Positions 32,735-56,695 of a DNA stretch of 64,000 bases are shown here, piece by piece. Under the pieces are notes generated by a model, which was given only the letters and a program-made list of their open reading frames with translations, was not told where the DNA came from and made no database searches. The position numbers were made by a program, and so were the translations under genes. Location of the stretch: the NCBI GenBank assembly GCA_964426725.1, contig CAYRRV010000015.1, forward strand, positions 7,765 to 71,764, written 5' to 3'. This stretch comes from an uncultured Bacteroidales bacterium (lineage in GTDB: Bacteria; Bacteroidota; Bacteroidia; Bacteroidales; CAYRRV01). How positions within the stretch are numbered: position 1 is the stretch's first letter; the number at the start of each line of letters is the position of its first letter.

Positions 32735-34204
<1,470 letters not shown>

Positions 34205-34214
34205 TGATATAAAA

Positions 34215-34256
34215 AAACCGCGGGTTTTCAATAAGAAGCTTGAAAGCCCGTGGTTT
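34215..34256. terminator. long hairpin between convergent metY and hypB (terminator candidate)
   Basis: AAACCGCGGG-t-TTTCAA-taagaagc-TTGAAA-g-CCCGTGGTTT (about 16 bp). The preceding A7 run gives a U-run on the minus-strand (hypB) transcript. Confidence 0.5.
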
Positions 34257-35079
34257 ACTTCAAGCTTTGCACTTGGGCTTTTAACCAGTTATACCATTGT
34301 TCCATCCCCTCTCCCGTTTTCACAGAAAGTTCCAGGAAAGACAAGTGGTGATTCACCCGGAGTGCATATTCACGGCATTTTTTCATGTCAAAATCCACGT
34401 GGGGCAACAAATCAATTTTATTAATAATACACAAATCGGCAGACTGAAACATGTGAGGATACTTGATAGGTTTATCATCACCCTCGGTAACACTGATAAT
34501 GACAACCCGTTTAGCTTCTCCTAAATCGAAAAGAGCCGGACAAACCAGGTTGCCAACGTTTTCAATAAACAGGATGCTGTTGTTCTCGGGATTAAGTTCC
34601 TTGGCTGCCCGGTTAATCATGTCGGCATCCAAATGACAACCGGTTCCTGTATTCACCTGGATAACAGGTGCTCCTGCCTTTTCAATCCGTTCTGCATCAT
34701 TCATGGTTTGCTGATCACCCTCAATAATGGCCAGTTTTAATTCCGGCAATATTTCCCTGATAGTTTTCTCCAAAAGAAATGTTTTACCTGATCCTGGTGA
34801 ACTAACAAGGTTCAAAGTAAATATCGACTTAGCCTCGAAATAACCCCGGTTCCGTTGCGCCATCAGGTTGTTTTTCTGTAAAACATCCTGCTCGACGATA
34901 ATCTCACGCCCGTGCGAGTGATCGTGATGGTGATGATGAGCATGTTCATGATCAGGGTCATTATGATGATGTCCATGCTCTTTATCTCGATCTTCATGAT
35001 GATGATGGTGGTGCAAGGCATCACCTGGTTTTCTTATAGAAATTTTGTTACCTTCTCCGCATCCACAAGTGTCACACAT
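34255..35079 (-). CDS. hypB: hydrogenase nickel incorporation GTPase HypB
   Basis: MCDTCGCG N-terminal metal site, a His-rich stretch (HHHHHHEDRDKEHGHHHNDPDHEHAHHHHHDHSH) and a P-loop SPGSGKT. Confidence 0.95.
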   Translation of the reverse strand: MCDTCGCGEGNKISIRKPGDALHHHHHHEDRDKEHGHHHNDPDHEHAHHHHHDHSHGREIIVEQDVLQKNNLMAQRNRGYFEAKSIFTLNLVSSPGSGKTFLLEKTIREILPELKLAIIEGDQQTMNDAERIEKAGAPVIQVNTGTGCHLDADMINRAAKELNPENNSILFIENVGNLVCPALFDLGEAKRVVIISVTEGDDKPIKYPHMFQSADLCIINKIDLLPHVDFDMKKCREYALRVNHHLSFLELSVKTGEGMEQWYNWLKAQVQSLK

Positions 35080-35183
35080 ATACTTTGTTTTTATTACAAA
35101 ATTAATAATTTTATAAACAGTATTTATCCATTATTTACGATATCTTCATTATGCTCCTTCTCAATTCTTTTTTTCAATACGCC

Positions 35184-35528
35184 TCACCGATCAATTTTCA
35201 ATGATTTGATTTTCAAATCCTTGCCTTCAATAATCAAAGGATTAAATGAGCCACAAGAAGGGCAAGGAGAAAACAGGTCATTTGTTACAAACCCGGTTCC
35301 GCAATTTTCACATTTCGCTTTTCCCTCGATCAGGTTAATAATGATCCCCGCGTCCTGCAATTTTGAATTTTTAACTGCTGAATCCAAGGCCATTTGCAAT
35401 GCTTCGGGTATTATTCCACTTAATAACCCAACATCGAGCTCAAGTTCGTCAACTTTTATCGCTCCCTCCTTTTCGGCAATTTCATCAACCATTTCAACGA
35501 TATTGCAGGCAATAGAGAATTCGTGCAT
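35184..35528 (-). CDS. hypA: hydrogenase maturation nickel metallochaperone HypA
   Basis: The ATG at 35528 gives MHEFSIACNIVEMV (MHE metal-binding N-terminus). Zn site CENCG...CPSCGS. 114 aa. Confidence 0.9.
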   Translation of the reverse strand: MHEFSIACNIVEMVDEIAEKEGAIKVDELELDVGLLSGIIPEALQMALDSAVKNSKLQDAGIIINLIEGKAKCENCGTGFVTNDLFSPCPSCGSFNPLIIEGKDLKIKSLKIDR

Positions 35529-35742
35529 ATCTTTAACATTAGTCAATAAGTAACCACGTGTTAAAGATAAACGATAAAAACCGGTAAACAAGATACTTAT
35601 TCTCATGTTTTATAAAATAACACCTGAAAAACTTGACTTTCGAATACAGTATTCGTATATTTTAGGTTAATTCTTGCTAAAAACCAACCGCCATGACACA
35701 TGAGATTTCATTATATAATGTCCAATATGCAAAAATTCGCTT

Positions 35743-36102
35743 ATGGATCATACCCGCTATTTGAACTCTAAACCTAGTATTAAACTGAATATTGAAATTG
35801 GAGGGAAAAAGGGTACAATTAATCTTTGTTCCACTTACGGGTGTTTTGATCATGCCAGTTCTGTTGATATAATTCCGGACGACATGGGTACATTTTCATG
35901 TCCCTCTTGTAAAACTGAACTGAAAGGAACGGATACATGTAATATTTGCTCGGCCCCAATGATTGACATGAGCCTGGATAAGGGAGGCAAAGTGAGTATC
36001 TGCTCAAGAGCAGGGTGCAAAAAACACTACATTGCTTTCGAGGATATTTCAGATGCCATTAATAACCTATACAGGGATTATAATTACGGTGGAGGTCTAT
36101 AA
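35743..36102 (+). CDS. small cysteine-rich hypothetical protein (zinc-ribbon-like)
   Basis: 119 aa with paired cysteines: C-x4-C, CPSC, CNIC, C-x4-C. Divergent from hypA. No family recognised. Confidence 0.5.
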   Translation: MDHTRYLNSKPSIKLNIEIGGKKGTINLCSTYGCFDHASSVDIIPDDMGTFSCPSCKTELKGTDTCNICSAPMIDMSLDKGGKVSICSRAGCKKHYIAFEDISDAINNLYRDYNYGGGL

Positions 36103-36115
36103 TACCCCGGTTTAT

Positions 36116-37003
36116 TTACTCTCGGATTTTTAAGAGTACTTTATCCAGTACCTGGTTAAATAGCAATTCGTCTTCACACATGGGAAAATGCCCGGTTTGT
36201 CCGGTAGTATAAAGTTCGAAAGAATAGGGGCACAATTTTGTAAGAGATTGAGTAAAAGTGGGTGTGATTTCATTGTTTATCAGGTAAAGCTTATAGGGTA
36301 ACTCTTGTAAAAGTTTTATTTTCTCGTTTCCGAAATCATTTACTGATTTAAAGGCAAGTAGTGCAACTTCAGGGTTGGCAGTTACGAAATCACTTTTCAC
36401 GCGTTCCTTAAAGTTATCCGGGGTAGAAGAGGAAAATAAATTACCTGCCGCGTAGGCAGGAGCGATATTTCTAAAATCATCTTTCAATAACTGCATTAAT
36501 GATTGTAAATGCCTGTTTTCTTCAGGATTATTTGTTAGTCCCACATTTTTGAAACTCTCAACACCGATCAAGCCAATGACATTCTTCGGTTCATTAACCG
36601 CCACCTGCAATGCAATATCGCCCGACATGGCATGGCCAATTAATATTACATTTTTAAGGCGAAGCCTTCGGATAAACCCAGAAATATCTTCACCATAGGT
36701 GGCAATGCTCCAGTCTTTTCTTGCTAAATTTATTGATTCCCCAAACCCGGGCAGATCAGGAGCAATCACACGATAATTTGCACAATAATGCATTAACTGA
36801 GAATTCCAGTAATCTTTATTAAGGCACCAGCCATGCAAAAACAAAAGTGTTGTATCGCCTCTTCCTCCAAAATAATATTCTATTTCAGTTTTTCCTGTCT
36901 GGAGAACAGAAACCTGGATTTTACATGGATCATCTACCCGAGGTACCTGATGTTTACAGGCAGAACTAAGAATTAACGTTAATATGAAAAGGTATTTATA
37001 CAT
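36116..37003 (-). CDS. alpha/beta hydrolase, probable lipoprotein
   Basis: Lipobox-like LILSSAC, HGW oxyanion region and nucleophile elbow GHAMSG. 295 aa. Confidence 0.8.
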   Translation of the reverse strand: MYKYLFILTLILSSACKHQVPRVDDPCKIQVSVLQTGKTEIEYYFGGRGDTTLLFLHGWCLNKDYWNSQLMHYCANYRVIAPDLPGFGESINLARKDWSIATYGEDISGFIRRLRLKNVILIGHAMSGDIALQVAVNEPKNVIGLIGVESFKNVGLTNNPEENRHLQSLMQLLKDDFRNIAPAYAAGNLFSSSTPDNFKERVKSDFVTANPEVALLAFKSVNDFGNEKIKLLQELPYKLYLINNEITPTFTQSLTKLCPYSFELYTTGQTGHFPMCEDELLFNQVLDKVLLKIRE

Positions 37004-37174
37004 CTACAATAAAGAAATAATCATAAATATATAGAATTTAGATGACATTGTGAAATTAACCGGGTAAAAACTCTATTTTAATCAATCAACTAACAAATAA
37101 CAGATACCTCTTGTTCAAGAAAATAGATTTTTTGTAATCAAAATCTTTGATGGAAAAATACTATACTATTGCTT

Positions 37175-37273
37175 GTACATATAAAAAGGTAGTTAATTTG
37201 TGCCACATGCCCTAAAAATAAAGGGATATACCTGCTGCAATATTAATTATCACCTTAATGTCACGCGTCACTA
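37175..37273 (-). repeat. ~95-nt intergenic repeat family, copy 7 (3' block degenerate)
   Basis: Reverse complement reads TAGTGACGCGTGAC...TTAATATTGCAGCAGGTATATCCCTTTATTTTTAGGGCAT-GTGGCACAAATTAACTACC. The palindrome abuts the hypE stop codon (37271-37273). Confidence 0.6.
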
Positions 37274-38284
37274 ACATATCCTGGGTAATTGCTCCCCGGC
37301 CAGCATGTCCACGATTCTCGATCCTCCTATGGTAGTTCTCATTAATACTTTTCGGGGATTTTCACTGGTCACCGAACCAATTATAGAAGCATCTTTTCCC
37401 AATGGATTGTTTTGTAGTATACTGATTATCTTGTCGCTATCTTTTGGATCAACGATTATTACAACTTTTCCCTCGTTGGCAACATACAGGGGATCAAACC
37501 CAAATATTTCACACGCTCCTCTAACGCCTTCACGGATGGGTATTTGGGTTTCGTCAATATTTATTCCAAGGTTCCGGTACTGCACCAGTTCATTGAGCAC
37601 GGAAGCAAGTCCTCCCCTGGTAGCATCCCGCATGAATTTGATATGGCAACCGGCATCTGTCAACTCTTTAATCATGTAATATAAGCTGGCACAATCTGAA
37701 TGGATTTCAGATTCAAAATGAAGCGATTCTCTTGCAGCCATAACGGAGATTCCATGATCACCCAGTGTTCCGTTAACAAGCACCATATCACCGGGCTGAA
37801 TTTTATTTCCTGTTATAACTGCCTCATAACCTTCAATAGCAGTACCTATTCCGGTTGTATTGATAAAAATTTTATCGCATTTGCCCTTGTTCACCACTTT
37901 TGTATCGCCGGTAACAATTTTCACCCCGGCATTCATTGCTTCCGCGGCCATGGATATCACGATCTTTTCCAGGTCTTTTAGAGGAAATCCTTCCTCAATG
38001 ATAAATGCCACGCTTATATACAAGGGTTTACCACCACTTACGGCAATATCATTCACGGTACCACAAACCGCGAGTTTACCAATATCTCCTCCCGGGAAAA
38101 AAATGGGATCAACCACGAAAGAATCGGTGGTAAAAAGAACATTTTTACCAATGTTATCCAAAAGTGCAGCATCACCCTGGACCATCAGTTTATCATTACC
38201 AAAATGTTTATAAAAAAGATTCTGGATAAGGTCATGGGTCAACTTACCACCGCTCCCGTGCCCGAGTAATACTTTATTTTCCAT
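37271..38284 (-). CDS. hypE: hydrogenase expression/formation protein HypE
   Basis: LLGHGSGGKLTHDLI N-terminus, PurM-like fold and the C-terminal PRIC motif. Confidence 0.95.
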   Translation of the reverse strand: MENKVLLGHGSGGKLTHDLIQNLFYKHFGNDKLMVQGDAALLDNIGKNVLFTTDSFVVDPIFFPGGDIGKLAVCGTVNDIAVSGGKPLYISVAFIIEEGFPLKDLEKIVISMAAEAMNAGVKIVTGDTKVVNKGKCDKIFINTTGIGTAIEGYEAVITGNKIQPGDMVLVNGTLGDHGISVMAARESLHFESEIHSDCASLYYMIKELTDAGCHIKFMRDATRGGLASVLNELVQYRNLGINIDETQIPIREGVRGACEIFGFDPLYVANEGKVVIIVDPKDSDKIISILQNNPLGKDASIIGSVTSENPRKVLMRTTIGGSRIVDMLAGEQLPRIC

Positions 38285-38285
38285 T

Positions 38286-39380
38286 TCAAGTGTTCCTGTT
38301 ATATCTATACCAAGCCTGACAAGCTCCCTCGTTGGAAACCATACATGAACCGACCGGGTTCACAGGTGTACATTCTTTTGCAAAAAGTCTGCAATCGGAA
38401 GGTGATTTTATTCCTTTTAACACGGCCCCACAGATGCATCCCCGGGGTTCTAAAGTTTCACCTGGTTGTATGGGTATCATTGCCTCCGCGCTAAACAGGC
38501 GGTACTTTTCTCTGATTTTCATTCCGCTGGCAGGTAGTATGCCCAGTCCTCTCCACCAATCATCCTGTAATTCAAACACTTCATCCAATATTGCCCTGGC
38601 TTTTTGATTTCCAGACTCAGTAACGGCTCTTTTATATTGGATTTCAACAGCAGGCTGGCTACTTTCTACCTGATTAACAAGCATGTATATTCCCTGTAAA
38701 ATATCAATGGGCTCGAACCCGGTAACCACCACACCAAGTCCATACTTGGAGGCTATTTGATGATACATACTTGTACCCGTGATGGTAGTAACATGACCTG
38801 GAGCCAGGTAGCCGTCCAGTTGCACGCCCTCGTCAACCAAGGCTGTCATCGCTGGTGGCATTATCTTGTGTGAACTCAACAGAAAAAAGTTATCCAACCC
38901 CATTTTTGAGGCCTGAATGACTGCCACAGCAGAACCCGGTGCCGTTGTTTCAAACCCAATTCCAAGAAAAACTACTTTCTTATTCACATTATCGCGTGCA
39001 ATCTGAATGGCTTCAAGTGAAGACTGCACCATGCGGACATCGGCCCCGTTTGCTTTTTCTTTTTCGAGAGTTGAACGTGATCCCGGAACTCTTATTAAAT
39101 CACCGAAAGTGGTTACAATAACATCATCTAAATGACTGTAAGCTATTGCTTTATCAATAAAACCCCTGCCCGTAACGCAAACCGGACAGCCGGGGCCAGA
39201 TAATAGTCGAATATTAGAAGGTAACAAAGATGGGATTCCAAACTTGTGAATGGCCATGGTATGGCCACCACATATCTCCATAAAGGCAACCTTTCTCCGG
39301 GATACTTCATTGATTTTATGCACCAGTTTTTTTACCAGGGTGGCATCCCTGTACTCATCCATGTATTTTACAGGGGCCAT
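38286..39380 (-). CDS. hypD: hydrogenase formation protein HypD
   Basis: CGGHT, GPGCPVCV and GFETT motifs. 364 aa. Confidence 0.95.
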   Translation of the reverse strand: MAPVKYMDEYRDATLVKKLVHKINEVSRRKVAFMEICGGHTMAIHKFGIPSLLPSNIRLLSGPGCPVCVTGRGFIDKAIAYSHLDDVIVTTFGDLIRVPGSRSTLEKEKANGADVRMVQSSLEAIQIARDNVNKKVVFLGIGFETTAPGSAVAVIQASKMGLDNFFLLSSHKIMPPAMTALVDEGVQLDGYLAPGHVTTITGTSMYHQIASKYGLGVVVTGFEPIDILQGIYMLVNQVESSQPAVEIQYKRAVTESGNQKARAILDEVFELQDDWWRGLGILPASGMKIREKYRLFSAEAMIPIQPGETLEPRGCICGAVLKGIKSPSDCRLFAKECTPVNPVGSCMVSNEGACQAWYRYNRNT

Positions 39381-39631
39381 TATTCTTCCCCGGTTTTTGG
39401 CAATTCATTATCCCAGGGATTTTCTTCCAGTTCCTTTATAAGCTGAAGGGTTTCCTTGGCTTCTTCTTCACTTATTTTTTGCAGGGCAAAACCCGTGTGC
39501 ACCAGTATGTAGTCTCCCACTTGCACGTCATCCACGAGTTGCAGTCCTGCAGTAACAACAGTTCCCCCGATAGATGCTTTCGCTGTTTCTCCTTCTATGG
39601 AAATAATTTTTGCCGGTATACTTAAACACAT
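39380..39631 (-). CDS. hypC: HypC/HybG/HupF family hydrogenase chaperone
   Basis: MCLSIPAKII N-terminal Cys motif. 83 aa. Overlaps hypD by 1 nt and hypF by 10 nt. Confidence 0.9.
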   Translation of the reverse strand: MCLSIPAKIISIEGETAKASIGGTVVTAGLQLVDDVQVGDYILVHTGFALQKISEEEAKETLQLIKELEENPWDNELPKTGEE

Positions 39632-41943
39632 AATTCTTCTCTTTTTTTTGCTGCAATTACTAATTGTCCTAATGCTATACCCCCGTCATTGGAAGGTACA
39701 GTACCATGGGTAAGTACCCTGAAACCATTCTCCTCCAAAAGTGGTTCGGTTTTCCCCAACAGGTACCTGTTCTGAAATGTACCCCCGGAAAGAACAACGG
39801 TATTAATACCATGTATTTCCCGGATTTTTTTCGTCACTGTAAAAATAACCGAAATGATTGTATTATGAAATCTTGTAGCAATGTTTTGTATATCTTCGTT
39901 TCGTGAAATATCATCCATAATAGCTCGTGTAGTTGATTTAAATGAAATCACGTTTTTTTGAAAATCAAAAGGATATTCTCCCCTGATACCAGGATTTATT
40001 GCTGCCTCCAACCTCATGGGAGCCTCGGCATGAAAACCGCTGTTCAAACAAAGGCCTGTAATGGCAGCAATACCATCAAATAACCGTCCTGCACTGGAAC
40101 TCAAGGGTGAATTGATATTTTTTTCAATGGCCTGTATTATAAGATTAATTTTCCCGGGATCAATTTTTTGCAATAAATTCATATCAACATGAAAAATATC
40201 TTTCCCGAATGTATGATACAGGTAACTCAGGCCTGTACGCCAAGGTTGTTTTGTTGCTACATCCCCTCCCGGTACCGGGATGTACTCAAAATGAGCTTCT
40301 CTTGAATATCCTGACAAATCAGCAACCAAAAACTCTCCTCCCCAGATATGACCATCGTCACCTAAACCAGTGCCATCAAAGCACACCCCGATTACTTTTT
40401 CATAATGCCCATGTTCGGCCATGCAAGAGGCCAAATGGGCATGATGATGTTGGATTTTTACCTGAGGTAGTCCTGTTTCAGCGGCGTATGAACTTGAAAG
40501 ATAATCAGGATGCAAATCCCGGGCAACAAGTGAAGGCTGAAACCGGAATAATTTTTTATACCTTTTGATTGATTCCGTGTAAAAAGAATAAGTTTCATAA
40601 TTCTTTAAATCCCCAATATACTGACTTAAGATAGCCTGATTCTCCCTGCCAATAGCAAAACAATTCACCAGCTCGGCCCCGGTAGCCAATATGCCTTCAA
40701 CATTTAAACTTGTTAACACGGGTGATGGTGCAAATCCTCTTGATCGCCTGATTAACCTTTGCTTCTTATTCACTGAAAATGCAACAGAATCGTCTACCCG
40801 GTTATTAATGTCACGGTTATGTTCAACTATAGCATCAACCCTGCTGCCAAAACATTTTTCTGCTTTTTTATTATCAATAATAATAGGTTCATCAGAAATA
40901 TTACCGCTGGTTAAAACAATGGCCGGCGATTCCAGCTTAGCAAGTAACTGGTAATGAAAAGGCATGTAGGGTAATAGCACACCAAGAGTTGGAAATCCGT
41001 TAGAAACAGCCTGTACAGGAAATTTGTCCGATTGAAGGATTACAACCGGTCTCTGCCAGGATTCAAGTATTTGTTGCTCATTTTTATCCACAGAAACATA
41101 TGATTGGAGGGATAAAATATCACGGAACATAACGGCAAAGGGTTTGGCTTCCCTTTGCTTAATTTGTCTTAGCCTTTCAACAGCCCTGTTACTGAAAGCA
41201 TCGCACATGAGATGGTATCCACCGATACCTCGTACCGCAATAATTTTCTCTTCTTTAATCAGCATGGTAATCCTCTCCAGGATTGCATCAATTCCATTTA
41301 GTAAATTACCTCCCTCGATCAACTGGTAATTCGGTCCACAGGAATTACATGCCACGGGTTGGGCGTGAAATCGGCGATCGAGAATATCATGGTATTCTCG
41401 TGCACAATCAGCGCACATTGCAAATTCAGACATGGTTGTATTTTCCCGGTCATAAGGCAAATCCCGGGTTATGCTGAAGCGCGGACCACAATTGGTGCAG
41501 TTGGTAAAAGGATAATCCAACCGATGCGACTGATGTTTCATATCGCGTATACAATCCGGACACACGGCAATATCAGGACTCACCCATGTAATTCCTTCTA
41601 CATCTGATTCACTTGATTTTATGGTAAAAGAACTGACATGTTTTGTTTTCGTTTCCAATATTTCGATAGATTCAATGGTTGCCGCGAGAGGAGCTTCACG
41701 TTGAATATCAGCGATGAAGTTTTGAATCGATCCATTCAGTCCTTCCACGTGTAAAGTAACCCCGTGAAGGTTATTGGTAACCCACCCGGAGAGGTCATGT
41801 TTCAAGGCCAGCCTGTAAATGAAAGGCCTGAACCCTACCCCCTGCACTAAACCATTTATTGTAATCTTTCTCGCTTTCAAATATTTTCGATAGTTATTAC
41901 CACAAAACGATAAGTTTAAGGTAAAAATTTCGTCCTGGTTCAT
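39622..41943 (-). CDS. hypF: carbamoyltransferase HypF
   Basis: Acylphosphatase domain (INGLVQGVGFRPFIYRLA), two CxxC-x18-CxxC zinc fingers (CPDC...CTNCGPR, CADC...CNSCGP), and YrdC and Kae1-like domains. 773 aa. Confidence 0.95.
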   Translation of the reverse strand: MNQDEIFTLNLSFCGNNYRKYLKARKITINGLVQGVGFRPFIYRLALKHDLSGWVTNNLHGVTLHVEGLNGSIQNFIADIQREAPLAATIESIEILETKTKHVSSFTIKSSESDVEGITWVSPDIAVCPDCIRDMKHQSHRLDYPFTNCTNCGPRFSITRDLPYDRENTTMSEFAMCADCAREYHDILDRRFHAQPVACNSCGPNYQLIEGGNLLNGIDAILERITMLIKEEKIIAVRGIGGYHLMCDAFSNRAVERLRQIKQREAKPFAVMFRDILSLQSYVSVDKNEQQILESWQRPVVILQSDKFPVQAVSNGFPTLGVLLPYMPFHYQLLAKLESPAIVLTSGNISDEPIIIDNKKAEKCFGSRVDAIVEHNRDINNRVDDSVAFSVNKKQRLIRRSRGFAPSPVLTSLNVEGILATGAELVNCFAIGRENQAILSQYIGDLKNYETYSFYTESIKRYKKLFRFQPSLVARDLHPDYLSSSYAAETGLPQVKIQHHHAHLASCMAEHGHYEKVIGVCFDGTGLGDDGHIWGGEFLVADLSGYSREAHFEYIPVPGGDVATKQPWRTGLSYLYHTFGKDIFHVDMNLLQKIDPGKINLIIQAIEKNINSPLSSSAGRLFDGIAAITGLCLNSGFHAEAPMRLEAAINPGIRGEYPFDFQKNVISFKSTTRAIMDDISRNEDIQNIATRFHNTIISVIFTVTKKIREIHGINTVVLSGGTFQNRYLLGKTEPLLEENGFRVLTHGTVPSNDGGIALGQLVIAAKKREELCV

Positions 41944-44287
41944 GTTTTATAAATCCCCTGTACGTGCTAAGGTGATTTTTATAGGAACGGTCAAAAATAT
42001 TTTCAATCCCACCGAATAACTGAACCCGGGAAGACCCGAAATTAATTCTTTGGGAATGAATATCAAAATTATATATAGCATAACCGCTCGTCGCTGGTTC
42101 ATTTTCAGCCAATCTTTCCTTGTCAGCAAATAATATAACATTTGTTTCAGCATTTAGCCAGCCCGGCAACCGGTACCTGATACCTACCTGACCATTCACG
42201 GGTGGAATTCCAACCAGCGGTTCACCCGTGCTTACATCCTGACCATAAACATAAGAAGCCCGAGATGACAGGACAAAATTCCTGGCGAAGTTATATTCCC
42301 CAAAAAAATCAAAACCCCACAAAGTAGCCTCGTTAATATTCATATTAACCAGGGCCGGCAATGTATCGGGCACCCCGCCTGTAGTGTACTCTTTCACGAA
42401 TATACCGGGTTCCTGGTAAATCAGGTTATCCAAAGTATTGAAAAACACGTTGGTTTTCCAGTTAAACCGGTTACCCCAGTAACGGGTTCCCAGGTCAAAA
42501 AAATACCCTTGTTCAGGTTCAAGGTCGGGGTTACCAAGATCCACGTATGCCCCGAGATCAATGTACTTGTATCGCTCCTCGAGAGAGGGACTCCTGAACG
42601 AACGAGCGAGATTCAGCGTTATATCCAAATCACTGGTTGCCTTATAAAGTAAACCAGCGTTAGCACTCCACGAGACGTTCGTTACATTGCCTTCACTAAA
42701 AGTTACTTTCTGGTTTGGAGGTGTTTCGTTTCTAACTCCATCGATAATAATATAATAGGGGTCAACTGCTTCTTTATTCATCACCTGAATATAATCGAAC
42801 CGCCCTCCAAGAGAAACCTTCAATTTGTTATTCAGGGTGAAGAAATTATCCTGAACAAAGAATCCAATATCAGAGAATGAACTTTCGGGAATCGGGATTT
42901 CACCAATTATTCTGTTTTGATATCCCACGGTTGTCCCACTGGTATCCTGGATTGGAATGGTCTGGTTTTTTTCCCGGCTGGTAGATAATTGTCTTTGCCA
43001 GGCCTCAATTCCACCTGTTACTTCATGATTGCTAAAAAAGCGCCAATTGGTCTGTAATGATAATCCGTTGGTAAGATGCTTTCCGGCGGGGGTTATTCTG
43101 ACATTTGGATTAGGCTGAAGAAGAACATCCCTTAAAATATACTGGTTAAAATATTTTAATGTAAGTTTGTTGAGGCTAGGTAACAAACCCGTGGCATGAT
43201 AAGATATGCTTGTCAGGTCGCGCTTCTCAATTGGATAAGTAGCGGTTGCATTGGGCGGAAATGCAGCCCCTCCTGGTATCCCTACATCCTCGGCCCTGAA
43301 ACGGTTCATTAAGATTTCCACTTCATGGTTTTTCGCGATTTTAGCACCTCCCCGAAAAGATAAATTGTAATCGGTAAACTGACTATTGGGTAACTCTCCT
43401 TCCGGTGTAATTACGTCATCTGCATCGCGATACGACAAATTAAGCCGACCATGAAAATTTTTACTACCGGCACGAATCATCGTGTTCCCTGCATACATGG
43501 AATTTGCAGTATGATAAGAACCCGCTACCCTGCCATTCAGGTATGGTTTGTTATTATAATACCCTGACCCGGTAATCACGTTAACAATACCACCCATGGC
43601 GCCCGTGCCATAAATGGATGATGCTGCACCTTTGATAACTTCAATTCTTTCAATATCAAAAGGATCGATCATTGACAATGCCGCGGATAAATCGGTGGCT
43701 GTCTCGAGCCTGTTGCCATCAATCATGGTAATTAACCGCTGTTCAGACAGCCCACGAATATTTACTGAAGTACCCCACATGCCATCTCGCGATAGCACAA
43801 CCCCAGGTTCTTTTGCCAGCAAATCGGGTATGGTATATACCGAGTGACGAAAAACGTCCTTTTTATCAATAATACCGACAGGGAGCGGAACCTGTCTTAT
43901 ATTATTTTCAGCACGAAGGCTCAAAACAATGACTTCCCCGAGAGATAATATCTTTTCTTCCAGGTGGAGGGTAACATCATTCATTACTTCTTCTAAATCA
44001 ACCGTTTTCTGATAATTGATATAGCCTACACCCGAAGTTTTTAAGATATAAGAATCACTTGGTATACCTGAAATAGAAAATTGCCCTTTTTTGTCGGTAA
44101 CCGCGAAAAATACAGGTTCTCCTGTGGTATCAGGATATGCATGTAATAACACGTGTACAGCGGGTAGCGGTTTCCCTGTCTCCTTTTCCAAAACTTTCCC
44201 CTTCAGGGAGACCTGTCCGAATAGTCCGTTAGTAATTAGAATGAAAGAAAAGAATCCAACTACAAATTTACTTGTTTTCATCATCAA
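41897..44287 (-). CDS. TonB-dependent receptor with CarboxypepD_reg-like N-terminal domain
   Basis: Signal peptide, the LKGKVLEKETGKPLPAVHVLL fold motif, a plug (VIKGAASSIYGTGAMGGIVNV) and a beta-barrel ending in aromatic W. 3' end overlaps the hypF start by 47 nt. 5' end overlaps the TM1266-like gene by 20 nt. Confidence 0.9.
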   Translation of the reverse strand: MMMKTSKFVVGFFSFILITNGLFGQVSLKGKVLEKETGKPLPAVHVLLHAYPDTTGEPVFFAVTDKKGQFSISGIPSDSYILKTSGVGYINYQKTVDLEEVMNDVTLHLEEKILSLGEVIVLSLRAENNIRQVPLPVGIIDKKDVFRHSVYTIPDLLAKEPGVVLSRDGMWGTSVNIRGLSEQRLITMIDGNRLETATDLSAALSMIDPFDIERIEVIKGAASSIYGTGAMGGIVNVITGSGYYNNKPYLNGRVAGSYHTANSMYAGNTMIRAGSKNFHGRLNLSYRDADDVITPEGELPNSQFTDYNLSFRGGAKIAKNHEVEILMNRFRAEDVGIPGGAAFPPNATATYPIEKRDLTSISYHATGLLPSLNKLTLKYFNQYILRDVLLQPNPNVRITPAGKHLTNGLSLQTNWRFFSNHEVTGGIEAWQRQLSTSREKNQTIPIQDTSGTTVGYQNRIIGEIPIPESSFSDIGFFVQDNFFTLNNKLKVSLGGRFDYIQVMNKEAVDPYYIIIDGVRNETPPNQKVTFSEGNVTNVSWSANAGLLYKATSDLDITLNLARSFRSPSLEERYKYIDLGAYVDLGNPDLEPEQGYFFDLGTRYWGNRFNWKTNVFFNTLDNLIYQEPGIFVKEYTTGGVPDTLPALVNMNINEATLWGFDFFGEYNFARNFVLSSRASYVYGQDVSTGEPLVGIPPVNGQVGIRYRLPGWLNAETNVILFADKERLAENEPATSGYAIYNFDIHSQRINFGSSRVQLFGGIENIFDRSYKNHLSTYRGFIKHEPGRNFYLKLIVLW

Positions 44288-44534
44288 AATTGTTCTTTAT
44301 TAGTACTGATTTAACCTTCACGCCCTTTAACCTGCCTAATTTTCCGGTAAGAGACCCGATTTCGTCAGTATTTCCCTCTAGAACAATTGAAATAACAGAT
44401 ATCCCGCGATCACGCAACGGAATTCCCTGCCGGCCAATAATAATTTGACCATGCGCTGAAAGAATCTCGTTAATTTTCGTCGTGTTATTGGATTCTTTAA
44501 CAATTACAAGTACTGATCCAATTCTCTTTTCCAT
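44268..44534 (-). CDS. TM1266-family ACT/NikR-C-like protein (putative iron-only hydrogenase system regulator family)
   Basis: 88 aa. MEKRIGSVLVIV...GISVISIVLEGNTDEIGSLTGKLGRLKGVKVKSV matches my recollection of the TM1266 / TIGR03959-type pattern. Strong SD (GGAGGA) 6 nt upstream. Confidence 0.7.
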   Translation of the reverse strand: MEKRIGSVLVIVKESNNTTKINEILSAHGQIIIGRQGIPLRDRGISVISIVLEGNTDEIGSLTGKLGRLKGVKVKSVLIKNNFDDENK

Positions 44535-44660
44535 CAGATTTCCTCCGGATTAGATGCTGTTCAGAAACCTTGAAACGGATAAAATCCGATCCTCAGTTAA
44601 TAAAAGCAGTTTTATTAATTGACAGCAAAAATAACAATATATTTTGAAAGAAAAACACTA

Positions 44661-44678
44661 TTGTTATCAAAATAACAA
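44661..44678. promoter_or_regulatory. Rex-operator-like palindrome upstream of the TM1266-like/TonB-receptor/hypFCDE operon
   Basis: TTGTTAT-CAAA-ATAACAA, 18 bp, the same core as the two boxes at 52350-52384. About 127 nt upstream of the 44534 start. An extra inverted repeat ATAACAATA (44631-44639) / TATTGTTAT (44659-44667) is present. Confidence 0.5.
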
Positions 44679-44841
44679 GAGAAGCTACCTCATGGGGCTC
44701 ACGAATTCTATGCATGGGTGTGCATGTCCATCGATTATTTAAAGACATAAATTCACATGAAGATATACAAAATATCAAAGATAAAAAAGACATTAGTTTT
44801 ATGCCTTCAAAAGCTGAAAAAGAAACACGAGTACAGGAATA

Positions 44842-45060
44842 CTAACGCATTGATCTCCGGATTGCTTTCTTGGTAGCTTTCCTGTATGTTTTGTGCGATT
44901 TTTTGAGTTTCGCGTTGTACTTTTTACTGTTCATAATGGCATTTCTGGGCAGTTCCCTGGTATCCAGCAACATCAAGCCTCTCTTTGAACTAAAGGACTT
45001 GCTTGATGAACTGCAACCGAAACACGCGAATACAAATAATATGATTACAATTCTCATCAT
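44842..45060 (-). CDS. small basic hypothetical protein with signal peptide
   Basis: 72 aa. MMRIVIILFVFACFGCSSS, then a Lys/Arg-rich tail. Weak support; no family recognised. Confidence 0.3.
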   Translation of the reverse strand: MMRIVIILFVFACFGCSSSSKSFSSKRGLMLLDTRELPRNAIMNSKKYNAKLKKSHKTYRKATKKAIRRSMR

Positions 45061-45302
45061 AGCAATTGATTTTTACTTGATGATACGGCAATAATCTATA
45101 TTGGTTGCATTATTTCACAAAAATTCTCCTAATAGTTGAAGTTAGAGAAAAAAGCATATCTTACAGCACTATAAATCATATCAATTGTTAGTCAGGTAGA
45201 ATTATCTTACATATAAATACGGTTTTATTCTATTTTTAAAATTAGTATGTACAACCCGCTTATTTAAAGAGAGACGGCTGGATTTTTTAAACATTAGCTA
45301 TT

Positions 45303-45336
45303 AAAAAAAAGAGGTTATCTTTTTTAAGATAACCTC
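45303..45336 (-). terminator. rho-independent terminator ending the rex-hox operon
   Basis: GAGGTTATCTT-tttt-AAGATAACCTC. On the minus strand it is followed by T8, 23 nt after the DHOD-like stop. Confidence 0.8.
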
Positions 45337-45358
45337 CTCATGTAAATTTATAAATCTC

Positions 45359-46342
45359 TCAATCTATTTTTCCGATAGTTTTTTTCATGAACTGAACTCT
45401 TTCAAAGGCCGCTGAACTTTGTTCATCTTTCACGGCTATTCCCCGGCAGTCATCCAATGAATTATAGCCCTGACGATTCATCCAAGCCTCAAATTCCCGG
45501 AGCATAGTACCGGCATAACTAATTCCGTTCTTGTAAAGAGTAGAACAGACCTGCACGGTGGTGGCTCCAGCAAGAATTTGCCTGGCCATGCCCGTGAAAT
45601 CATGGATACCGGTAGAAGCCGCTATATTACAACCTGCTTTGGCTGACATGAGTGCCACCCAACGCAAAGGGATGGTAATTTCCTCCGGTGAACTATATCG
45701 ATTTCTGGCAACAACCGCCACGTTATCAATATCTATATCAGGACGAAAAAACCTGTTAAATAATATTATGGCACCAATACCTGCATTACTCAGTTTATGA
45801 ATAAACCGGGCAGGATTTGTAAAATGAAATCCTATTTTTACCGCGATGGGTAACCCTGTATTTTTCTTCACCTCCTTAATAATATCAAAATAGGTATCTT
45901 CTATTCTCGAGGGAGGATAATTCATATCCGCAGGAGAAATACTTACGTTTAATTCCAGCCCATCGGCACCGGATTTTTCAATTTCTGAGGCAAAAACTGG
46001 CCATTCCCGCGGTGTAATGCAGTTAATGCTGGCGATAACCGGAATACTGGTTTCCTTTTTTGCCGCTGCAATAAGATTCAAGTAGGCATCTACACCATCT
46101 TCACGACTAAACTCATTAAGGTAATCAATAGCTTCGGGGTACCAGAAATACATGTCGTCCTGGGTCATCAAGCGGTCTTTGTCTACAAGAATTTGCTCCT
46201 CGAAAAGAGATTTAAGAACAACGGCACCAACGCCGGCTTCCTCGCACTTCTTAACTTTTTCCACCGAGTTGGTCAGCTCAGAACTACTTACAATCAAGGG
46301 ATTTTTTAGTTTCAAGCCCATGTAGTTTGTTGATAAATCCAT
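45359..46342 (-). CDS. dihydroorotate dehydrogenase-like (class 1 DHOD/DPD-fold) flavoprotein
   Basis: 327 aa. TIM-barrel FMN-binding pattern (NPLIVSSS..., GADGLELN.S.P, final GG.. region). Last gene of the hox transcription unit. Confidence 0.7.
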   Translation of the reverse strand: MDLSTNYMGLKLKNPLIVSSSELTNSVEKVKKCEEAGVGAVVLKSLFEEQILVDKDRLMTQDDMYFWYPEAIDYLNEFSREDGVDAYLNLIAAAKKETSIPVIASINCITPREWPVFASEIEKSGADGLELNVSISPADMNYPPSRIEDTYFDIIKEVKKNTGLPIAVKIGFHFTNPARFIHKLSNAGIGAIILFNRFFRPDIDIDNVAVVARNRYSSPEEITIPLRWVALMSAKAGCNIAASTGIHDFTGMARQILAGATTVQVCSTLYKNGISYAGTMLREFEAWMNRQGYNSLDDCRGIAVKDEQSSAAFERVQFMKKTIGKID

Positions 46343-46375
46343 AATCGTGTTGTTTTAAAGGGTTTATTGGTATTT

Positions 46376-46864
46376 TTATTCATTTACTGTTTCAGCCAAA
46401 CGCTCAGGACACTTCAGATAACTGGTCAGGAATTCAAAAGCCGCTTCCAGGTTTATTTTAGCCTTTCTCGTGAGTGATTCTTTAAGCTCCCACTCGTATC
46501 CCCTGATATGCATAAGATAACATGCAGGAACTTTGCCGTAAATCTGTCTACATAAATTCACCACGAAACCAGGGCTGACCGAGTGCATGGTAAATTCAAC
46601 CTTCGGGGAAGGCTCTACCTCTGTCATGCAATGGCCGGGAATATCTTCCATGGAAGCATCTGCAAAAACCACGACGTCACTGTTTGAAATTTCAGCAGCA
46701 TCTTCAATATTGAGCTGATAATTAGAATCCGTGATGATATTTGTAAAATGATTATTTCTTGCCCACTTTTCAATCTTTTCAGCCAAAAGAACCCCGAGGC
46801 CATCATCCTGACGGCCCGGGTTACCGTATCCATAGACAAGTATCTTTGGAGTTGCTTGCATCAT
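46376..46864 (-). CDS. hoxW: [NiFe] hydrogenase maturation endopeptidase (HoxW/HycI family)
   Basis: ILVYGYGNPGRQDDGLG signature. 162 aa. Start overlaps the hoxH stop by 4 nt. Confidence 0.9.
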   Translation of the reverse strand: MMQATPKILVYGYGNPGRQDDGLGVLLAEKIEKWARNNHFTNIITDSNYQLNIEDAAEISNSDVVVFADASMEDIPGHCMTEVEPSPKVEFTMHSVSPGFVVNLCRQIYGKVPACYLMHIRGYEWELKESLTRKAKINLEAAFEFLTSYLKCPERLAETVNE

Positions 46865-48312
46865 GAAATATACTTGTCAATTAATTTATCATCTTCACCA
46901 ACCAAAGTAATCTCGAGTGGCATTTTGCCAAGCGCGTGGGTAGCACAGCTCAAACAGGGATCGTATGCTCTAATTGCTACTTCCACAGCATTTTTCATAC
47001 CCTCTGTAATTTCGGATTTGCCGGTAAATTGTGCTTTAGCAACCTGGTTTACAGCAACGTTCATGGGTTCGTTATTATTAGTGGTAGAAACAATTAGGTT
47101 AGCCATTTCAATCTGATCATTATGGTTAACGCGATAATGATGGAACAATGTTCCCCTGGGAGCCTCGAGTAATCCGATACCCTCCAGTTTTTTCTCACCT
47201 TTGGTAACCAGGTCACCTTTCAGTAGATCCGGGTCATTCAGGAGTTCCTTCATCATCTCTGCACTGTGGAGTGTTTCTATTAACCGGCACCAGTGCATGT
47301 GCATGGCACTGTTACTGGGTTTTTCCTTCGTGTAATTCTTGTAGTATTCAAATTCCTTCTGTGCCATTGGGGTAGGAATAAACTCGGCAGTGTTCAGTCT
47401 TGCCAGTGGTCCTACCGTGTACCAACCATTCTTTTTACCCAGTTCTTTCAGGTAAGGAAACTTCATGTAGCTCCATGAGCGTACCTCTTCATCAATATAT
47501 TGGAGATAATCCTGGTACTTTATATCGTTCAGTATCTTGTTACCATCCTTATCGACTGCCCTTAACACTCCATGATATAAATCAAGTGCACCATCCGCGC
47601 GAACCAAACTCAGGTAATTGGAAGGAAATGTTACAAATTTATCGATAAGATCAACATTCTTCGTGTGGTAATCTTTAAAGAAATCGAGAGCTGCCTGGGC
47701 CCATTCTATCATCTTGTCAATGTTCAGCGGGTCTGGTCCCTTGAGAAATTCATCTCGTTCTTCGATGGTAAGATGCTTATTAATTCCGCCGGGAATTGCA
47801 CCGGTACCATGGATTTTTTTACCTGCAGTAGCCCGGATAACCTCCTGTCCGAATTTTCTCATCATCACTCCCTGAACAGCAAGATCCTTGTATTCCTGAG
47901 CCACGCCAATCACGTTTCGGACAACGGGATCTGCATCAACGCCAAAAAGAAGATCAGGTGATGCCAGGTGGAAAAAATGAAGGGCGTGCGACTGGAACAT
48001 CTGGCCATAATGCATCAGGCGACGCATTTTTTCGCCAGTTGGTGTTAAACCGTCACCGGTTCCTGCTCCCACGATTTCATCCATCGCCTTGGCAGATGCC
48101 AGGTGGTGGCTCACGGGACATATTCCACAAAGACGTTGAACCAGTACCGGTGCTTCCCAGTAGGGACGTCCCTGAACAAATCTCTCAAACCCCCTGAATT
48201 CAACGATATGTAATCTTGTTTGTGTAACATTACCGGCATTATCAAGATGAACTGTCACCTTCCCATGTCCTTCAACCCTGGTTACCGGTTCTATTGTTAT
48301 TTTTTGTGCCAT
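46861..48312 (-). CDS. hoxH: NAD-linked bidirectional [NiFe] hydrogenase large subunit (group 3d-like)
   Basis: RVEGHG, the N-terminal RLCGICPVSH and the C-terminal DPCLSCATH Ni-Fe ligand motifs, with a 24-aa tail after His for proteolytic maturation. Confidence 0.9.
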   Translation of the reverse strand: MAQKITIEPVTRVEGHGKVTVHLDNAGNVTQTRLHIVEFRGFERFVQGRPYWEAPVLVQRLCGICPVSHHLASAKAMDEIVGAGTGDGLTPTGEKMRRLMHYGQMFQSHALHFFHLASPDLLFGVDADPVVRNVIGVAQEYKDLAVQGVMMRKFGQEVIRATAGKKIHGTGAIPGGINKHLTIEERDEFLKGPDPLNIDKMIEWAQAALDFFKDYHTKNVDLIDKFVTFPSNYLSLVRADGALDLYHGVLRAVDKDGNKILNDIKYQDYLQYIDEEVRSWSYMKFPYLKELGKKNGWYTVGPLARLNTAEFIPTPMAQKEFEYYKNYTKEKPSNSAMHMHWCRLIETLHSAEMMKELLNDPDLLKGDLVTKGEKKLEGIGLLEAPRGTLFHHYRVNHNDQIEMANLIVSTTNNNEPMNVAVNQVAKAQFTGKSEITEGMKNAVEVAIRAYDPCLSCATHALGKMPLEITLVGEDDKLIDKYIS

Positions 48313-48324
48313 TTTTCTAAAATT

Positions 48325-48873
48325 TTAATCAAATTTAACAACTTCATAAGGTAAATTCATTTCTTCACCCTTTATAAGAGCGACAAGGGCATTCCAGATC
48401 AAGTCAGCTCTCGGTGGACAACCCGGCAGGTAATAATCAATCTTAACTACCTCGTGACAAGGATATACTTTATCAAGCAAGATGGGTAGTTCCTCGTCGT
48501 TTGGAATGATTTTATCGTCATTTGCTACAACTGAAGGTGACTTAAGGTAGGCTTCCTCAAGACATTCCTGCACGGGCAGACCGTTTCTCATGGCGGGTAA
48601 TCCACCCATGATCGCGCACTCGCCAACAGAAATAAGAATCTTGCATTGTTTCCTGAATTCCCGCAGAACTTCCACGTTCTCGGAATTACAACATCCACCC
48701 TCGATTAATCCAATATCACATTCCTTGGTGAACTCCTTTATATCATTTATTGGTGATTTATTGAATTCCACCAGTTCGATGAGATCCAATATTCTTTCAT
48801 CGATATCCAGGATCGACATGTGGCAGCCAAAACATCCTGCCAATGAAGTTGTTGCAACTACTGGTTTACTCAT
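48325..48873 (-). CDS. hoxY: [NiFe] hydrogenase small subunit (NuoB-like, HoxY)
   Basis: The ATG at 48873 gives MSKPVVATTSLAGCFGCHMS. Proximal-cluster cysteines (GCFGC..., GECA..GG, PGCPP). 182 aa. Confidence 0.9.
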   Translation of the reverse strand: MSKPVVATTSLAGCFGCHMSILDIDERILDLIELVEFNKSPINDIKEFTKECDIGLIEGGCCNSENVEVLREFRKQCKILISVGECAIMGGLPAMRNGLPVQECLEEAYLKSPSVVANDDKIIPNDEELPILLDKVYPCHEVVKIDYYLPGCPPRADLIWNALVALIKGEEMNLPYEVVKFD

Positions 48874-48880
48874 TTTTTTA

Positions 48881-49597
48881 TCAATTTTTATTTGTTTTTT
48901 CCATTTTTTCAATTTCACTACCAATCGGGCGATTATCAAATTTATGTGCCCCGATAGGTGTATCAAATCCTTTACCCCTTCTCATCAAAGCGCCAACAGG
49001 GCAAATAGCAACCGCTTCATCTGCTAATTCATCAGTAATTTTACCTACCAAATCGGGATCGATATTGATTTCAACCTGATGTCCGCGCTTTTTGAATGCA
49101 AAAATACTCTTGCCATTTTCATCCTTAATCCCGCGGATGCACCGTTTACATAAAATGCACCGGTTATGATCTTTCACGATCTTAGGATTATTGGCTTCCA
49201 CGTTTCTTGGATTAAACTTGTAAGGAAAACGCGGAACCATCATCTGAAACCTGTAACCCAGCGCCTGTAATTCACAGTCTCCGCTTTTCTCACACGCGGG
49301 ACAAAAATGATTACCCTCGACGAATAGTAATTCAACAATAGATTTTCTGATGTCTTGTATTTCTGCTGTTTCAGTCTCGATTTCCATTCCATCAGTAACG
49401 GGAGTGGTGCAGGATGTCATGGGACGACCATTCACGAGTACCGTGCATATGCGGCAAGCTCCCCTGGGTTTTACTCCCGGTATATTACACAAGGTAGGAA
49501 TGTAAATACCATTTTCTTTAGCAGCTTCCACGATGTAATGACCTTTCTCGGCCATGCATTCTTTTCCGTTTATAGTGAATTTTACGATTTTATTCAT
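48881..49597 (-). CDS. hoxU: diaphorase subunit HoxU (2Fe-2S plus 4Fe-4S, NuoG N-terminal-like)
   Basis: CNIPGVKPRGACRICTV 2Fe-2S motif, His-ligated cluster region (GNHFCPACEKSGDCELQ) and CILCKRCIR. Confidence 0.9.
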   Translation of the reverse strand: MNKIVKFTINGKECMAEKGHYIVEAAKENGIYIPTLCNIPGVKPRGACRICTVLVNGRPMTSCTTPVTDGMEIETETAEIQDIRKSIVELLFVEGNHFCPACEKSGDCELQALGYRFQMMVPRFPYKFNPRNVEANNPKIVKDHNRCILCKRCIRGIKDENGKSIFAFKKRGHQVEINIDPDLVGKITDELADEAVAICPVGALMRRGKGFDTPIGAHKFDNRPIGSEIEKMEKTNKN

Positions 49598-49610
49598 GAG
49601 TTTTTAACAT

Positions 49611-51425: not shown

Positions 51426-51436
51426 AGATCCTTAAA

Positions 51437-52084
51437 TTATTTTTTATTACTTATTGTATATTTATTTGGTTTTTCTGTATTATTAATAAAATACACGAGA
51501 TTAGTAAGCTCATGTTCAATATTGATGTTACGCACGTGCACCGCATCATTCCCCTTCAATATAACCGGAGTGAAATTTAAAACACCTTTTATGCCTGCCC
51601 TTTTTAAATTTTCAAAAGTTTCAACCGCAACGAGAGCAGGTACTGCTAATACGGCCAATCGAATGTCATTACCCGATACGAATTCTTCCAGAAGATCCAT
51701 GTGATAAACCGGCACTGAAGATTTTTCATCAATTTTTTTACTGTCAATATCAAAACCTGCCACGATAAATATGGAATCTTCCTGGAATTGCTTAAAATGC
51801 ATCAATGCTTGTCCGATTCTGCCGGTTCCGATAATAATTATCCTTTGTGGTTCTTTTAACCCGATTATCCTGTCAATTTTTTCAATAATACCATCAATAT
51901 GGTATCCTCCTTTCTGAATACCGGTTATGCCAAACAAACTAAAATCTTTTCTTACCAGGGATGATGAAATATCAAGGGCCTCGGCAATGTTATCCGAAAA
52001 AACCCGAATAAATCCCATGGCTTTAAATCTGGTTAGCAAAGATTTATATGAAGTTAACCGTAATATTCTTTCCTTCTCACTCAT
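51437..52084 (-). CDS. rex: redox-sensing transcriptional repressor Rex
   Basis: RLTSYKSLL..., winged-helix region SDNIAEALDISSSLVRKDFSLFG and Rossmann IIGTGRIGQAL. 11 nt upstream of hoxF. Confidence 0.9.
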   Translation of the reverse strand: MSEKERILRLTSYKSLLTRFKAMGFIRVFSDNIAEALDISSSLVRKDFSLFGITGIQKGGYHIDGIIEKIDRIIGLKEPQRIIIIGTGRIGQALMHFKQFQEDSIFIVAGFDIDSKKIDEKSSVPVYHMDLLEEFVSGNDIRLAVLAVPALVAVETFENLKRAGIKGVLNFTPVILKGNDAVHVRNINIEHELTNLVYFINNTEKPNKYTISNKK

Positions 52085-52349
52085 TATTTGTTACGATAAT
52101 AACTTTTTATCATGTTTTTGTAACTTATTTTAAGCTTTTTGGTCAAATTTAATTTATTGGCATAACATATTTTCAAAAAGCTTCTTTAGAATGATTTTAA
52201 ATTTTATCCATAAAAAAAAAGAAATATTCGTTTTACCTGAAATGTAAAAAAAAACCCATAATTTTGTTTTTTATTTTTCATTTAAATTCCTAAATAACAG
52301 AATCATAACCAAAGATAGCTATTGATTAATTTAGAATGATATTAAATTA

Positions 52350-52384: not shown

Positions 52385-52462
52385 TAAATTATTTATCTTT
52401 GTGTTAATATTATGTGCAGGTAAATAATCAATTTTCTGTTATAATTTTAACACAACTTGAAG

Positions 52463-52807: not shown

Positions 52808-52813
52808 TTAGGA

Positions 52814-56676: not shown

Positions 56677-56695
56677 AAACAGGAGGATTTCAGAA

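Follow-up and report, generated by a model that had tools for sequence, protein, structure and literature searches.

A TonB-dependent receptor family that tracks [FeFe] hydrogenases without HydG and HydF in Bacteroidota, and its TM1266-family partner

A stretch of 64,000 nucleotides (nt) from an uncultured Bacteroidales genome (hereafter the window, whose own numbering is used for all positions) was analysed around a small TM1266-family gene and the TonB-dependent receptor gene overlapping it. The receptor family tracks [FeFe] hydrogenases in bacteria that lack HydG and HydF of the HydE/HydF/HydG maturation system. The module formed by the two genes is conserved, and its leader RNA is shared with operons in which TM1266 precedes hydG. 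As the module was found only in bacteria with iron-only hydrogenases, and above all in those without the enzymes that build their cofactor, its substrate is probably a compound that this cofactor requires, and not nickel. We give an even chance to the more precise proposal that an import system within the [FeFe]-hydrogenase maturation regulon has TM1266 and the receptor as its outer-membrane arm, with an exogenous H-cluster precursor as the likeliest cargo. The elements of the module are the following (related loci and genomes are coded L and G, respectively).

44661-44678: Rex-like palindromic operator TTGTTAT-N4-ATAACAA, 127-144 nt upstream of the TM1266 start codon
44532-44600, minus strand: conserved 5' leader (covariance model R1, 56 bits)
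44268-44534, minus strand: TM1266-family small ACT/NikR-C-like protein of 88 amino acids (aa), cytoplasmic, first gene of the operon
41897-44284, minus strand: TonB-dependent outer-membrane receptor (796 aa in the earlier call, which extended the frame to 44287)

The open reading frames (ORFs) of the preliminary description of this DNA, namely the TM1266-type gene, the receptor and hypFCDE, were all recovered on the minus strand. Their tight order TM1266-receptor-hypFCDE also held, while the overlaps given for the receptor (20 nt with TM1266, 47 nt with hypF) depend on the choice of start codons. The likeliest start of the receptor is ATG 44284 or 44281 and not TTG 44287, which results in an overlap of 17 or 14 nt; in 41 related loci these two lengths are the commonest, and most overlaps fall between 8 and 17 nt. 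The 47-nt overlap requires hypF to start at ATG 41943; in a near-identical relative hypF is annotated from the TTG equivalent to 41880, 16 nt past the receptor stop.

The phyletic pattern was established in a sample of 401 genomes of the phylum, 41 of them with HydA and 17 with HydG. A full-length receptor ortholog, one per genome, was present in 24/24 HydA-positive genomes without HydG and in 4/17 of those with HydG. Eight of the 24 display the TM1266-receptor pair; the other 16 each contain exactly one full-length ortholog (196-587 bits), located in eight of them 2-6 kb from hydA, typically as a receptor-EamA pair divergent from hydCBA. None of the 39 HydA-negative genomes tested had an ortholog, and 16 within-family controls that were fully re-scored gave at most 90 bits, restricted to the N-terminal part. 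Fisher tests returned p = 1e-7 and 7e-12, values which are inflated by kinship. Even so, ten families contain carriers, and the within-family contrasts are concordant in each of four (f26, f28, f37 and f44). Among 54 genomes with a TM1266-receptor pair, all of which possess HydA-type genes, HydG and HydF were found in the identical 11 and were both missing from the identical 43; this perfect concordance indicates that the 43 absences are genuine and not assembly noise. Finally, 14 genomes with the receptor are HypD-negative, and the receptor was detected in 0/30 HypD-positive genomes without HydA. Its absence from these 30 controls despite their HypD shows that it does not follow [NiFe] hydrogenases.

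The window itself harbours an [FeFe] hydrogenase cluster which had been overlooked in the preliminary description and which was identified by family profile matches.

53229-60809, plus strand: [FeFe] hydrogenase island, divergent from rex
53229-54614, plus strand: HydS-like sensor
between the HydS-like sensor and HydB, plus strand: PHP protein and HATPase protein
56663-58489, plus strand: HydB
58514-60286, plus strand: catalytic HydA with the canonical H-cluster motifs TSCCPAW, MPCLAKKYE and EIMACPGGCIGG
60324-60809, plus strand: HydC

The genome, assembled in 92 contigs, is 99.2% complete and contains five HydA-type (Fe_hyd_lg_C) genes, two of them in the window. The earlier remark that no hydEFG genes are present in the window was borne out, and profile searches extended it to the whole genome: HydG gave no match, the best match to HydE reached 19.7 bits and the best match to HydF 81 bits against a cut-off of 326, i.e. 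none of the three maturases was found. A second hydrogenase island is located on contig C53 of the same genome (L145:3371-16811); it comprises a NitT/TauT-type ATP-binding cassette (ABC) importer, ribF, a second rex paralog (30% identity) and three HydA-type genes.

Gene neighbourhoods were surveyed in 83 loci, 80 from species genomes and three from metagenomes, by classifying the gene that follows TM1266. This gene encodes the receptor in 45/83 loci and HydG in 25/83, in agreement with the earlier idea of a TM1266 family not confined to the neighbourhood of hydEFG. TM1266 of Thermotoga maritima (PDB 2nzc; 'putative iron-only hydrogenase system regulator') belongs to the same family and shares the motifs RxGxP and D-x-IGAL-GKLG; the difference lies in the TonB-dependent receptor downstream, here and in those 45 loci, in genomes mostly devoid of HydG or HydF. 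A neighbourhood beside hydE, hydF or hydG was thus not found in the window's genome, yet TM1266 directly precedes HydG in the 25 loci mentioned. The slot after HydABC-Rex-RibF is taken by TM1266-HydG in some loci and by TM1266-receptor in others. Typical orders are HydC-HydB-HydA ... Rex-RibF-TM1266-HydG; HydA-Rex-RibF followed by a divergent NitT/TauT-type ABC importer and TM1266-receptor; and TM1266-receptor followed by a convergent O-acetylhomoserine sulfhydrylase gene, the window showing this last order with hyp genes inserted. Altogether ribF adjoins the module in 18 loci and also on C53.

In the phylum sample, TIGR03959 exceeded its cut-off in nine genomes. In the eight other than the window's own, the TM1266 gene is immediately followed by a full-length receptor ortholog (35-41% identity), and in seven of these eight an EamA permease gene comes next. 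Lineages without TM1266 carry receptor-EamA divergent from hydCBA, and no hidden TM1266-like ORF was found upstream of that pair, even among six-frame small ORFs. Five loci (L054, L058, L078, L064 and L107) display a Rex-HoxF-HoxU-[NiFe] small/large subunit-protease operon leading to a response regulator, a 295-aa gene, a DUF6272 gene and TM1266-HydG-HydG-like, so that a [NiFe] hydrogenase operon is joined there to [FeFe] maturase genes.

Bacteroidota encode dozens of TonB-dependent receptors per genome, and an ordinary nutrient receptor could have come to lie inside hydrogenase islands. Such a fortuitous adjacency is effectively excluded by the single copy of the ortholog and its restriction to HydA-positive genomes, by the conserved translational coupling to TM1266, by the leader held in common with hydG operons and by the divergent arrangement with hydCBA in other families.

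The receptor contains CarboxypepD_reg, Plug (85.5 bits) and barrel (118 bits) domains, and its N-terminus, MMKTSKFVVGFFSFILITNGLFGQ, resembles a signal peptide, as expected for the TonB-dependent receptor superfamily. The preliminary description had regarded kinship with characterised siderophore, B12 or glycan receptors, combined with a receptor loss that leaves hydrogenase activity or metal content unaffected, as a reason to abandon its proposal. The siderophore and B12 models did not reveal such kinship: the receptor remained below the cut-offs for haem/haemoglobin (TIGR01785, 231.8 bits against 316.85), siderophore (TIGR01783, 119.5 against 223.5) and BtuB receptors (TIGR01779, 108.5 against 599.7), as well as for the copper receptor model and every other specific NCBIfam receptor model. 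A search of positions 34000-53500 with Rfam revealed no cobalamin riboswitch. PDB profile matches were confined to the plug domain (CirA, PhuR, ShuA and BtuB). The orthologs score 196-593 bits over their full length and the best paralogs at most 90 bits. As judged from these profiles, the receptor is a distinct family tied to [FeFe] hydrogenases: a single full-length ortholog, found in HydA-positive genomes only, with an importer and/or TM1266 adjacent. Across lineages the inner-membrane partner is either an ABC system or an EamA permease. In the window's genome, the candidate partner is the NitT/TauT-type ABC system which does not adjoin the receptor and lies on C53, near ribF, the second rex and hydA.

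These profile matches bear on the question whether the receptor imports iron, as a chelate or as haem, for Fe-S-rich hydrogenases, with TM1266 as a regulator and an unrelated pathway accounting for maturation without HydEFG. The best sub-threshold NCBIfam matches are indeed haem/haemoglobin and siderophore receptor subfamilies, CirA, PhuR and ShuA are among the PDB plug matches, FeoAB is encoded upstream in one locus, and both types of hydrogenase are rich in iron. However, all the specific receptor models stay far below cut-off and TM1266 has no conserved metal ligands. A demand for iron would also leave unexplained why 4/17 HydG-positive and 24/24 HydG-negative genomes carry the receptor, and why 0/30 HypD-positive genomes without HydA do so, although Fe-S-rich [NiFe] hydrogenases are made there too. 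Iron import is therefore considered rather unlikely.

The assignment of the small protein to the TM1266 family, for which the preliminary description had asked for a profile check, was confirmed with 102.1 bits for TIGR03959 (cut-off 60.8) and 95 bits for PF21699 (cut-off 27). A family profile including the window protein matches PDB entry 2nzc_A over 80 positions (E = 8.4e-29). The residues R35, G37, P39, I48, D57, G60, G64, G67 and K75 are invariant in the family. Similarity to the C-terminal domain of NikR is weak (PF08753, 22.9 bits for a cut-off of 22; PDB NikR chains, E about 0.1), with the same predicted beta-alpha-beta-beta-alpha-beta layout. In contrast to NikR, the N-terminal ribbon-helix-helix DNA-binding domain is absent from the TM1266 protein, and so are the His/Cys nickel ligands: the only His of the window protein is not conserved, Cys is lacking, and no His or Cys is invariant in the family.

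Relatives of the small protein number 1175 in the protein database; the closest ones (55-76% identity) derive nearly all from metagenome-assembled genomes (MAGs) of Bacteroidales. Close orthologs (64% identity) directly precede hydG. In the TM1266 tree, receptor-linked and HydG-linked sequences interleave with about eight switches, which indicates that one orthologous group serves both contexts. TM1266 may either sense a ligand and act on the leader, or carry the cargo. Among the papers listed in our literature search, none concerned its function. The weak TIGR03959 hits elsewhere in the phylum sample were considered as further members and rejected, as they belong to a separate family of small proteins, 'c15' (about 86 aa; weak PF21699 match of 23 bits; L095:14503-14763 and L010-L021). 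This family, which accounts for every weak TIGR03959 match in the sample, follows HydG or the receptor in many loci and also occurs elsewhere in HydA-positive genomes.

The region of about 70 nt ahead of the TM1266 start is conserved in nucleotide sequence even where the proteins of the loci compared share only about 60% identity. In the window, it consists of CUGAG, a hairpin, CAAGG, a spacer and CUAAUCCGGAGG, which includes the Shine-Dalgarno sequence, and it ends at the ATG of TM1266; the consensus of the last element is CUGAUCCRRAGG and holds the ribosome-binding site. Compensatory changes were observed in 4 of the 7 predicted pairs. Over 1.2 Mb, the covariance model detected the leader in 75/85 related loci, once in each and abutting the TM1266 ATG, with no match outside these positions. 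It is shared by HydG-type and receptor-type loci, many of them outside the training set. When the window, contig C53, loci of distant clades and TM1266-less loci were searched with R1, only the window's own site matched, which confines the leader to the close TM1266 clade. Rfam (E <= 1, positions 34000-53500) gave nothing but a chance miRNA match, i.e. the leader is not catalogued.

The palindrome TTGTTAT-N4-ATAACAA occurs three times in the window for 0.18 expected by chance. Besides the copy upstream of TM1266, two are arranged in tandem at 52350-52384, in the rex/hydrogenase promoter region. By its likeness to the Rex consensus, the copy at 44661-44678 would be a Rex-type operator. With regard to the leader, the motif CUGA...AAGG is present twice, the second copy overlapping the ribosome-binding site. 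A small oligomeric ligand-binding protein encoded behind a conserved leader with repeated short motifs recalls PyrR on pyr leaders and TRAP on trp leaders. There is, however, no homology to these proteins, no terminator hairpin was identified in the leader, and binding of TM1266 to the leader is purely conjectural.

Rfam scans of 23 related loci revealed SAM riboswitches before the sulfhydrylase gene, tRNAs and one flavin mononucleotide (FMN) riboswitch before a different receptor. The latter (L092:6171-6303, 104 bits) precedes an 891-aa TonB-dependent receptor gene beside the ABC importer of the module. In this context, the cargo might also be an organic compound that serves an endogenous HydEFG-independent maturation pathway or the hydrogenase complex, as precursor or cofactor. 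It could be a flavin used by HydB/HoxF, or it could donate the sulfur or amine of the dithiomethylamine bridge. In favour of this, the NitT/TauT family of the ABC partner is sulfonate/taurine/nitrate-like, riboflavin is carried by some importers of the EamA and NMT1 types, and ribF lies beside the module in the 18 loci and on C53. The FMN riboswitch and second receptor of L092 as well as the HydE gene kept in some carriers point in the same direction. Conversely, no riboswitch was found ahead of the module in the window or in the 23 loci scanned, a need for flavin would not anticorrelate with HydG and HydF, and no candidate for an alternative maturase was identified. Import of such a compound is judged unlikely, although it deserves more weight than import of iron.

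The functional tie between the pair and hydrogenase maturation which the preliminary description had suggested is supported; which way it runs, what is transported and what TM1266 does are inferred here. One slot is filled alternately by a biosynthetic gene and by a transporter, under the same control element and with complementary phyletic patterns; this points to salvage replacing synthesis. The module shares regulon signals (the leader and the Rex-like operator) and the hydG slot with the HydE/HydF/HydG system. It differs from it by the absence of any sequence relationship, by being a transport system instead of a set of biosynthetic enzymes and by a distribution that is largely complementary to HydG and HydF. 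Vitamin regulons offer the classic case of a salvage transporter that stands in for a biosynthetic gene behind a common control element. The combination of an outer-membrane receptor and an inner-membrane importer resembles BtuB-BtuFCD, the ShuA/PhuR haem receptors and FrpB4. In contrast to these systems, the receptor stays below cut-off for the subfamilies tested, no known riboswitch is associated with it and it has no tie to [NiFe] genomes, FrpB4 being set apart by co-occurrence and not by sequence.

In the proposed mechanism, the Rex-like operator and the conserved leader RNA would control a single transcript, from which the cytoplasmic TM1266 protein would be translated first and the receptor by translational coupling to it. 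The receptor would bring a scarce compound over the outer membrane, and an inner-membrane partner, possibly the NitT/TauT-type ABC system of C53 here and the EamA permease encoded after the receptor in other lineages, would pass it to the cytoplasm. There, the compound would allow apo-HydA to become active without HydE, HydF or HydG. As cargo, either the [2Fe] subcluster or an iron-carbonyl-cyanide precursor of the H-cluster from outside the cell would be likeliest; it would substitute for what HydG and HydF supply. More tentatively, and with distinctly lower confidence than for the import system as such, Bacteroidota that have lost HydEFG may keep their [FeFe] hydrogenases active by pirating a preformed [2Fe] subcluster or a HydG-type Fe(CO)2(CN) synthon from the anaerobic community by means of the receptor and the importer, TM1266 acting as cytoplasmic sensor or carrier both here and in hydG operons.

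Several points weigh against an H-cluster precursor as cargo. No characterised receptor stands close to the present one, and we know of no precedent for the class of cargo proposed. Organometallic H-cluster precursors are labile to oxygen and, to our knowledge, none is a natural extracellular metabolite. The four HydG-positive carriers, together with six loci in which the order is TM1266-receptor-HydG, indicate that the receptor is not a strict replacement. Moreover, the missing steps are not uniform, as a HydE-family radical SAM gene above cut-off is kept in G337, G101 and G277, all without HydG and HydF; other carriers, among them the window's genome, have none. The genomes compared are mutually related and many are MAGs. 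Finally, an unrecognised endogenous maturation pathway needing another imported nutrient would yield the same phyletic pattern.

Downstream of the receptor, the following genes were identified in the window.

39622-41943, minus strand: hypF, carbamoyltransferase (TIGR00143, 739 bits; alternative start TTG 41880)
39380-39631, minus strand: hypC, above the NCBIfam cut-off
38286-39380, minus strand: hypD, above the NCBIfam cut-off
37271-38284, minus strand: hypE, above the NCBIfam cut-off
36116-37003, minus strand: alpha/beta hydrolase, between hypE and hypA
35184-35606, minus strand: hypA, downstream of the alpha/beta hydrolase gene
34255-35079, minus strand: hypB, downstream of hypA
32777-34204, plus strand: O-acetylhomoserine sulfhydrylase, directly after the receptor in relatives
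30286-32448, plus strand: family-less 720-aa gene, neighbour of the sulfhydrylase gene in relatives

The tight junction of the receptor with hypFCDE had led to the proposal of a dedicated metal-import arm of hydrogenase maturation. In its nickel form, the receptor would take up nickel for the assembly of the Hox enzyme and a NikR-C-like nickel-binding protein would sense it. The fusion to hyp genes is confined to near-identical relatives, however, and in the next closest ones (71-72% identity) TM1266-receptor directly precedes the sulfhydrylase gene. As the sulfhydrylase and 720-aa genes come directly after the receptor in relatives, they mark the site of hyp insertion. The location of hypFCDE downstream of the receptor is a recent, lineage-specific insertion which borrows a hydrogenase-responsive promoter. 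Profile searches for NiCoT, CbiM/NikM and HupE/UreJ transporters were negative in the genome; this leaves the entry of nickel unexplained, yet does not point to the receptor. The marginal NikR_C match is likewise offset by the absence of the NikR His/Cys ligands. Co-occurrence with nickel enzymes, as expected for a receptor of FrpB4 type, was not seen, considering the 0/30 HypD-positive genomes without HydA and the 14 carriers without HypD. The nickel proposal was consequently given up as unlikely, its probability being very small.

The alpha/beta hydrolase represents a non-standard component of the hyp cluster; the order alpha/beta hydrolase-hypA-hypB is conserved in the relatives L146 and L147, with the hydrolase gene at the same position. 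The 720-aa protein has no Pfam or NCBIfam match and is conserved at 50% identity near receptor and sulfhydrylase genes in nine Bacteroidales loci. Upstream of the module, the window contains the following features.

45308-45339: strong terminator with a 14-bp stem, at the end of the rex-hox operon
45359-52084, minus strand: rex-hox operon with rex, fused hoxEF, hoxU, [NiFe] small and large subunits, a maturation protease and a dihydroorotate-dehydrogenase-like gene
49611-51425, minus strand: fused hoxEF
51437-52084, minus strand: rex

The [NiFe] hydrogenase of this upstream unit belongs to group 3. A gap of about 800 nt separates it from the TM1266 unit, and the terminator located between both shows that they are two transcription units, which rules out the whole cluster as a single operon. 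The hoxEF product is a single 604-aa fusion with a NuoE-like N-terminus and a NuoF-like remainder. The dihydroorotate-dehydrogenase-like gene (45359-46342; NF005741, 387 bits) closes the operon directly ahead of the terminator and is kept in L146 and L147. Between the terminator and the TM1266 promoter, a 72-aa ORF (44842-45060) has a lipoprotein-like N-terminus (…FACFGCSSSS…) and no family match; it is called as a gene in L147.

How [FeFe] hydrogenases can be active in organisms without HydEFG is recognised as an unsolved problem; the apo-enzyme can be matured by a synthetic [2Fe] cofactor in the absence of maturases (PMC11216029). The source of the H-cluster in organisms without HydE, HydF and HydG has been questioned for archaea, Giardia, Entamoeba and 'a few' bacteria (PMC11216029; PMC3226654). 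Among the papers listed in our literature search, none dealt with HydG together with TonB-dependent receptors or with maturase-less Bacteroidota. The window contributes the hyp fusion and, for Gram-negative bacteria, a receptor arm whose phyletic fit is exact; the distribution of the module almost exactly matches that of maturase-less [FeFe] hydrogenases in one phylum. The receptor, its inner-membrane partners, TM1266 and the leader RNA are concrete targets ready for knock-out. Should the cargo differ from an H-cluster precursor, the module would still flag an unrecognised requirement of hydrogenase assembly. If it is such a precursor, the module would be the first natural route by which a hydrogenase cofactor is taken up, and would explain how maturase-less organisms come to have active [FeFe] hydrogenases. 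The annotation of TM1266 as a 'putative regulator' would then need revision, the receptor could be used for delivering synthetic cofactors into cells, and hydrogen metabolism in gut and sediment would rest on cofactor cross-feeding.

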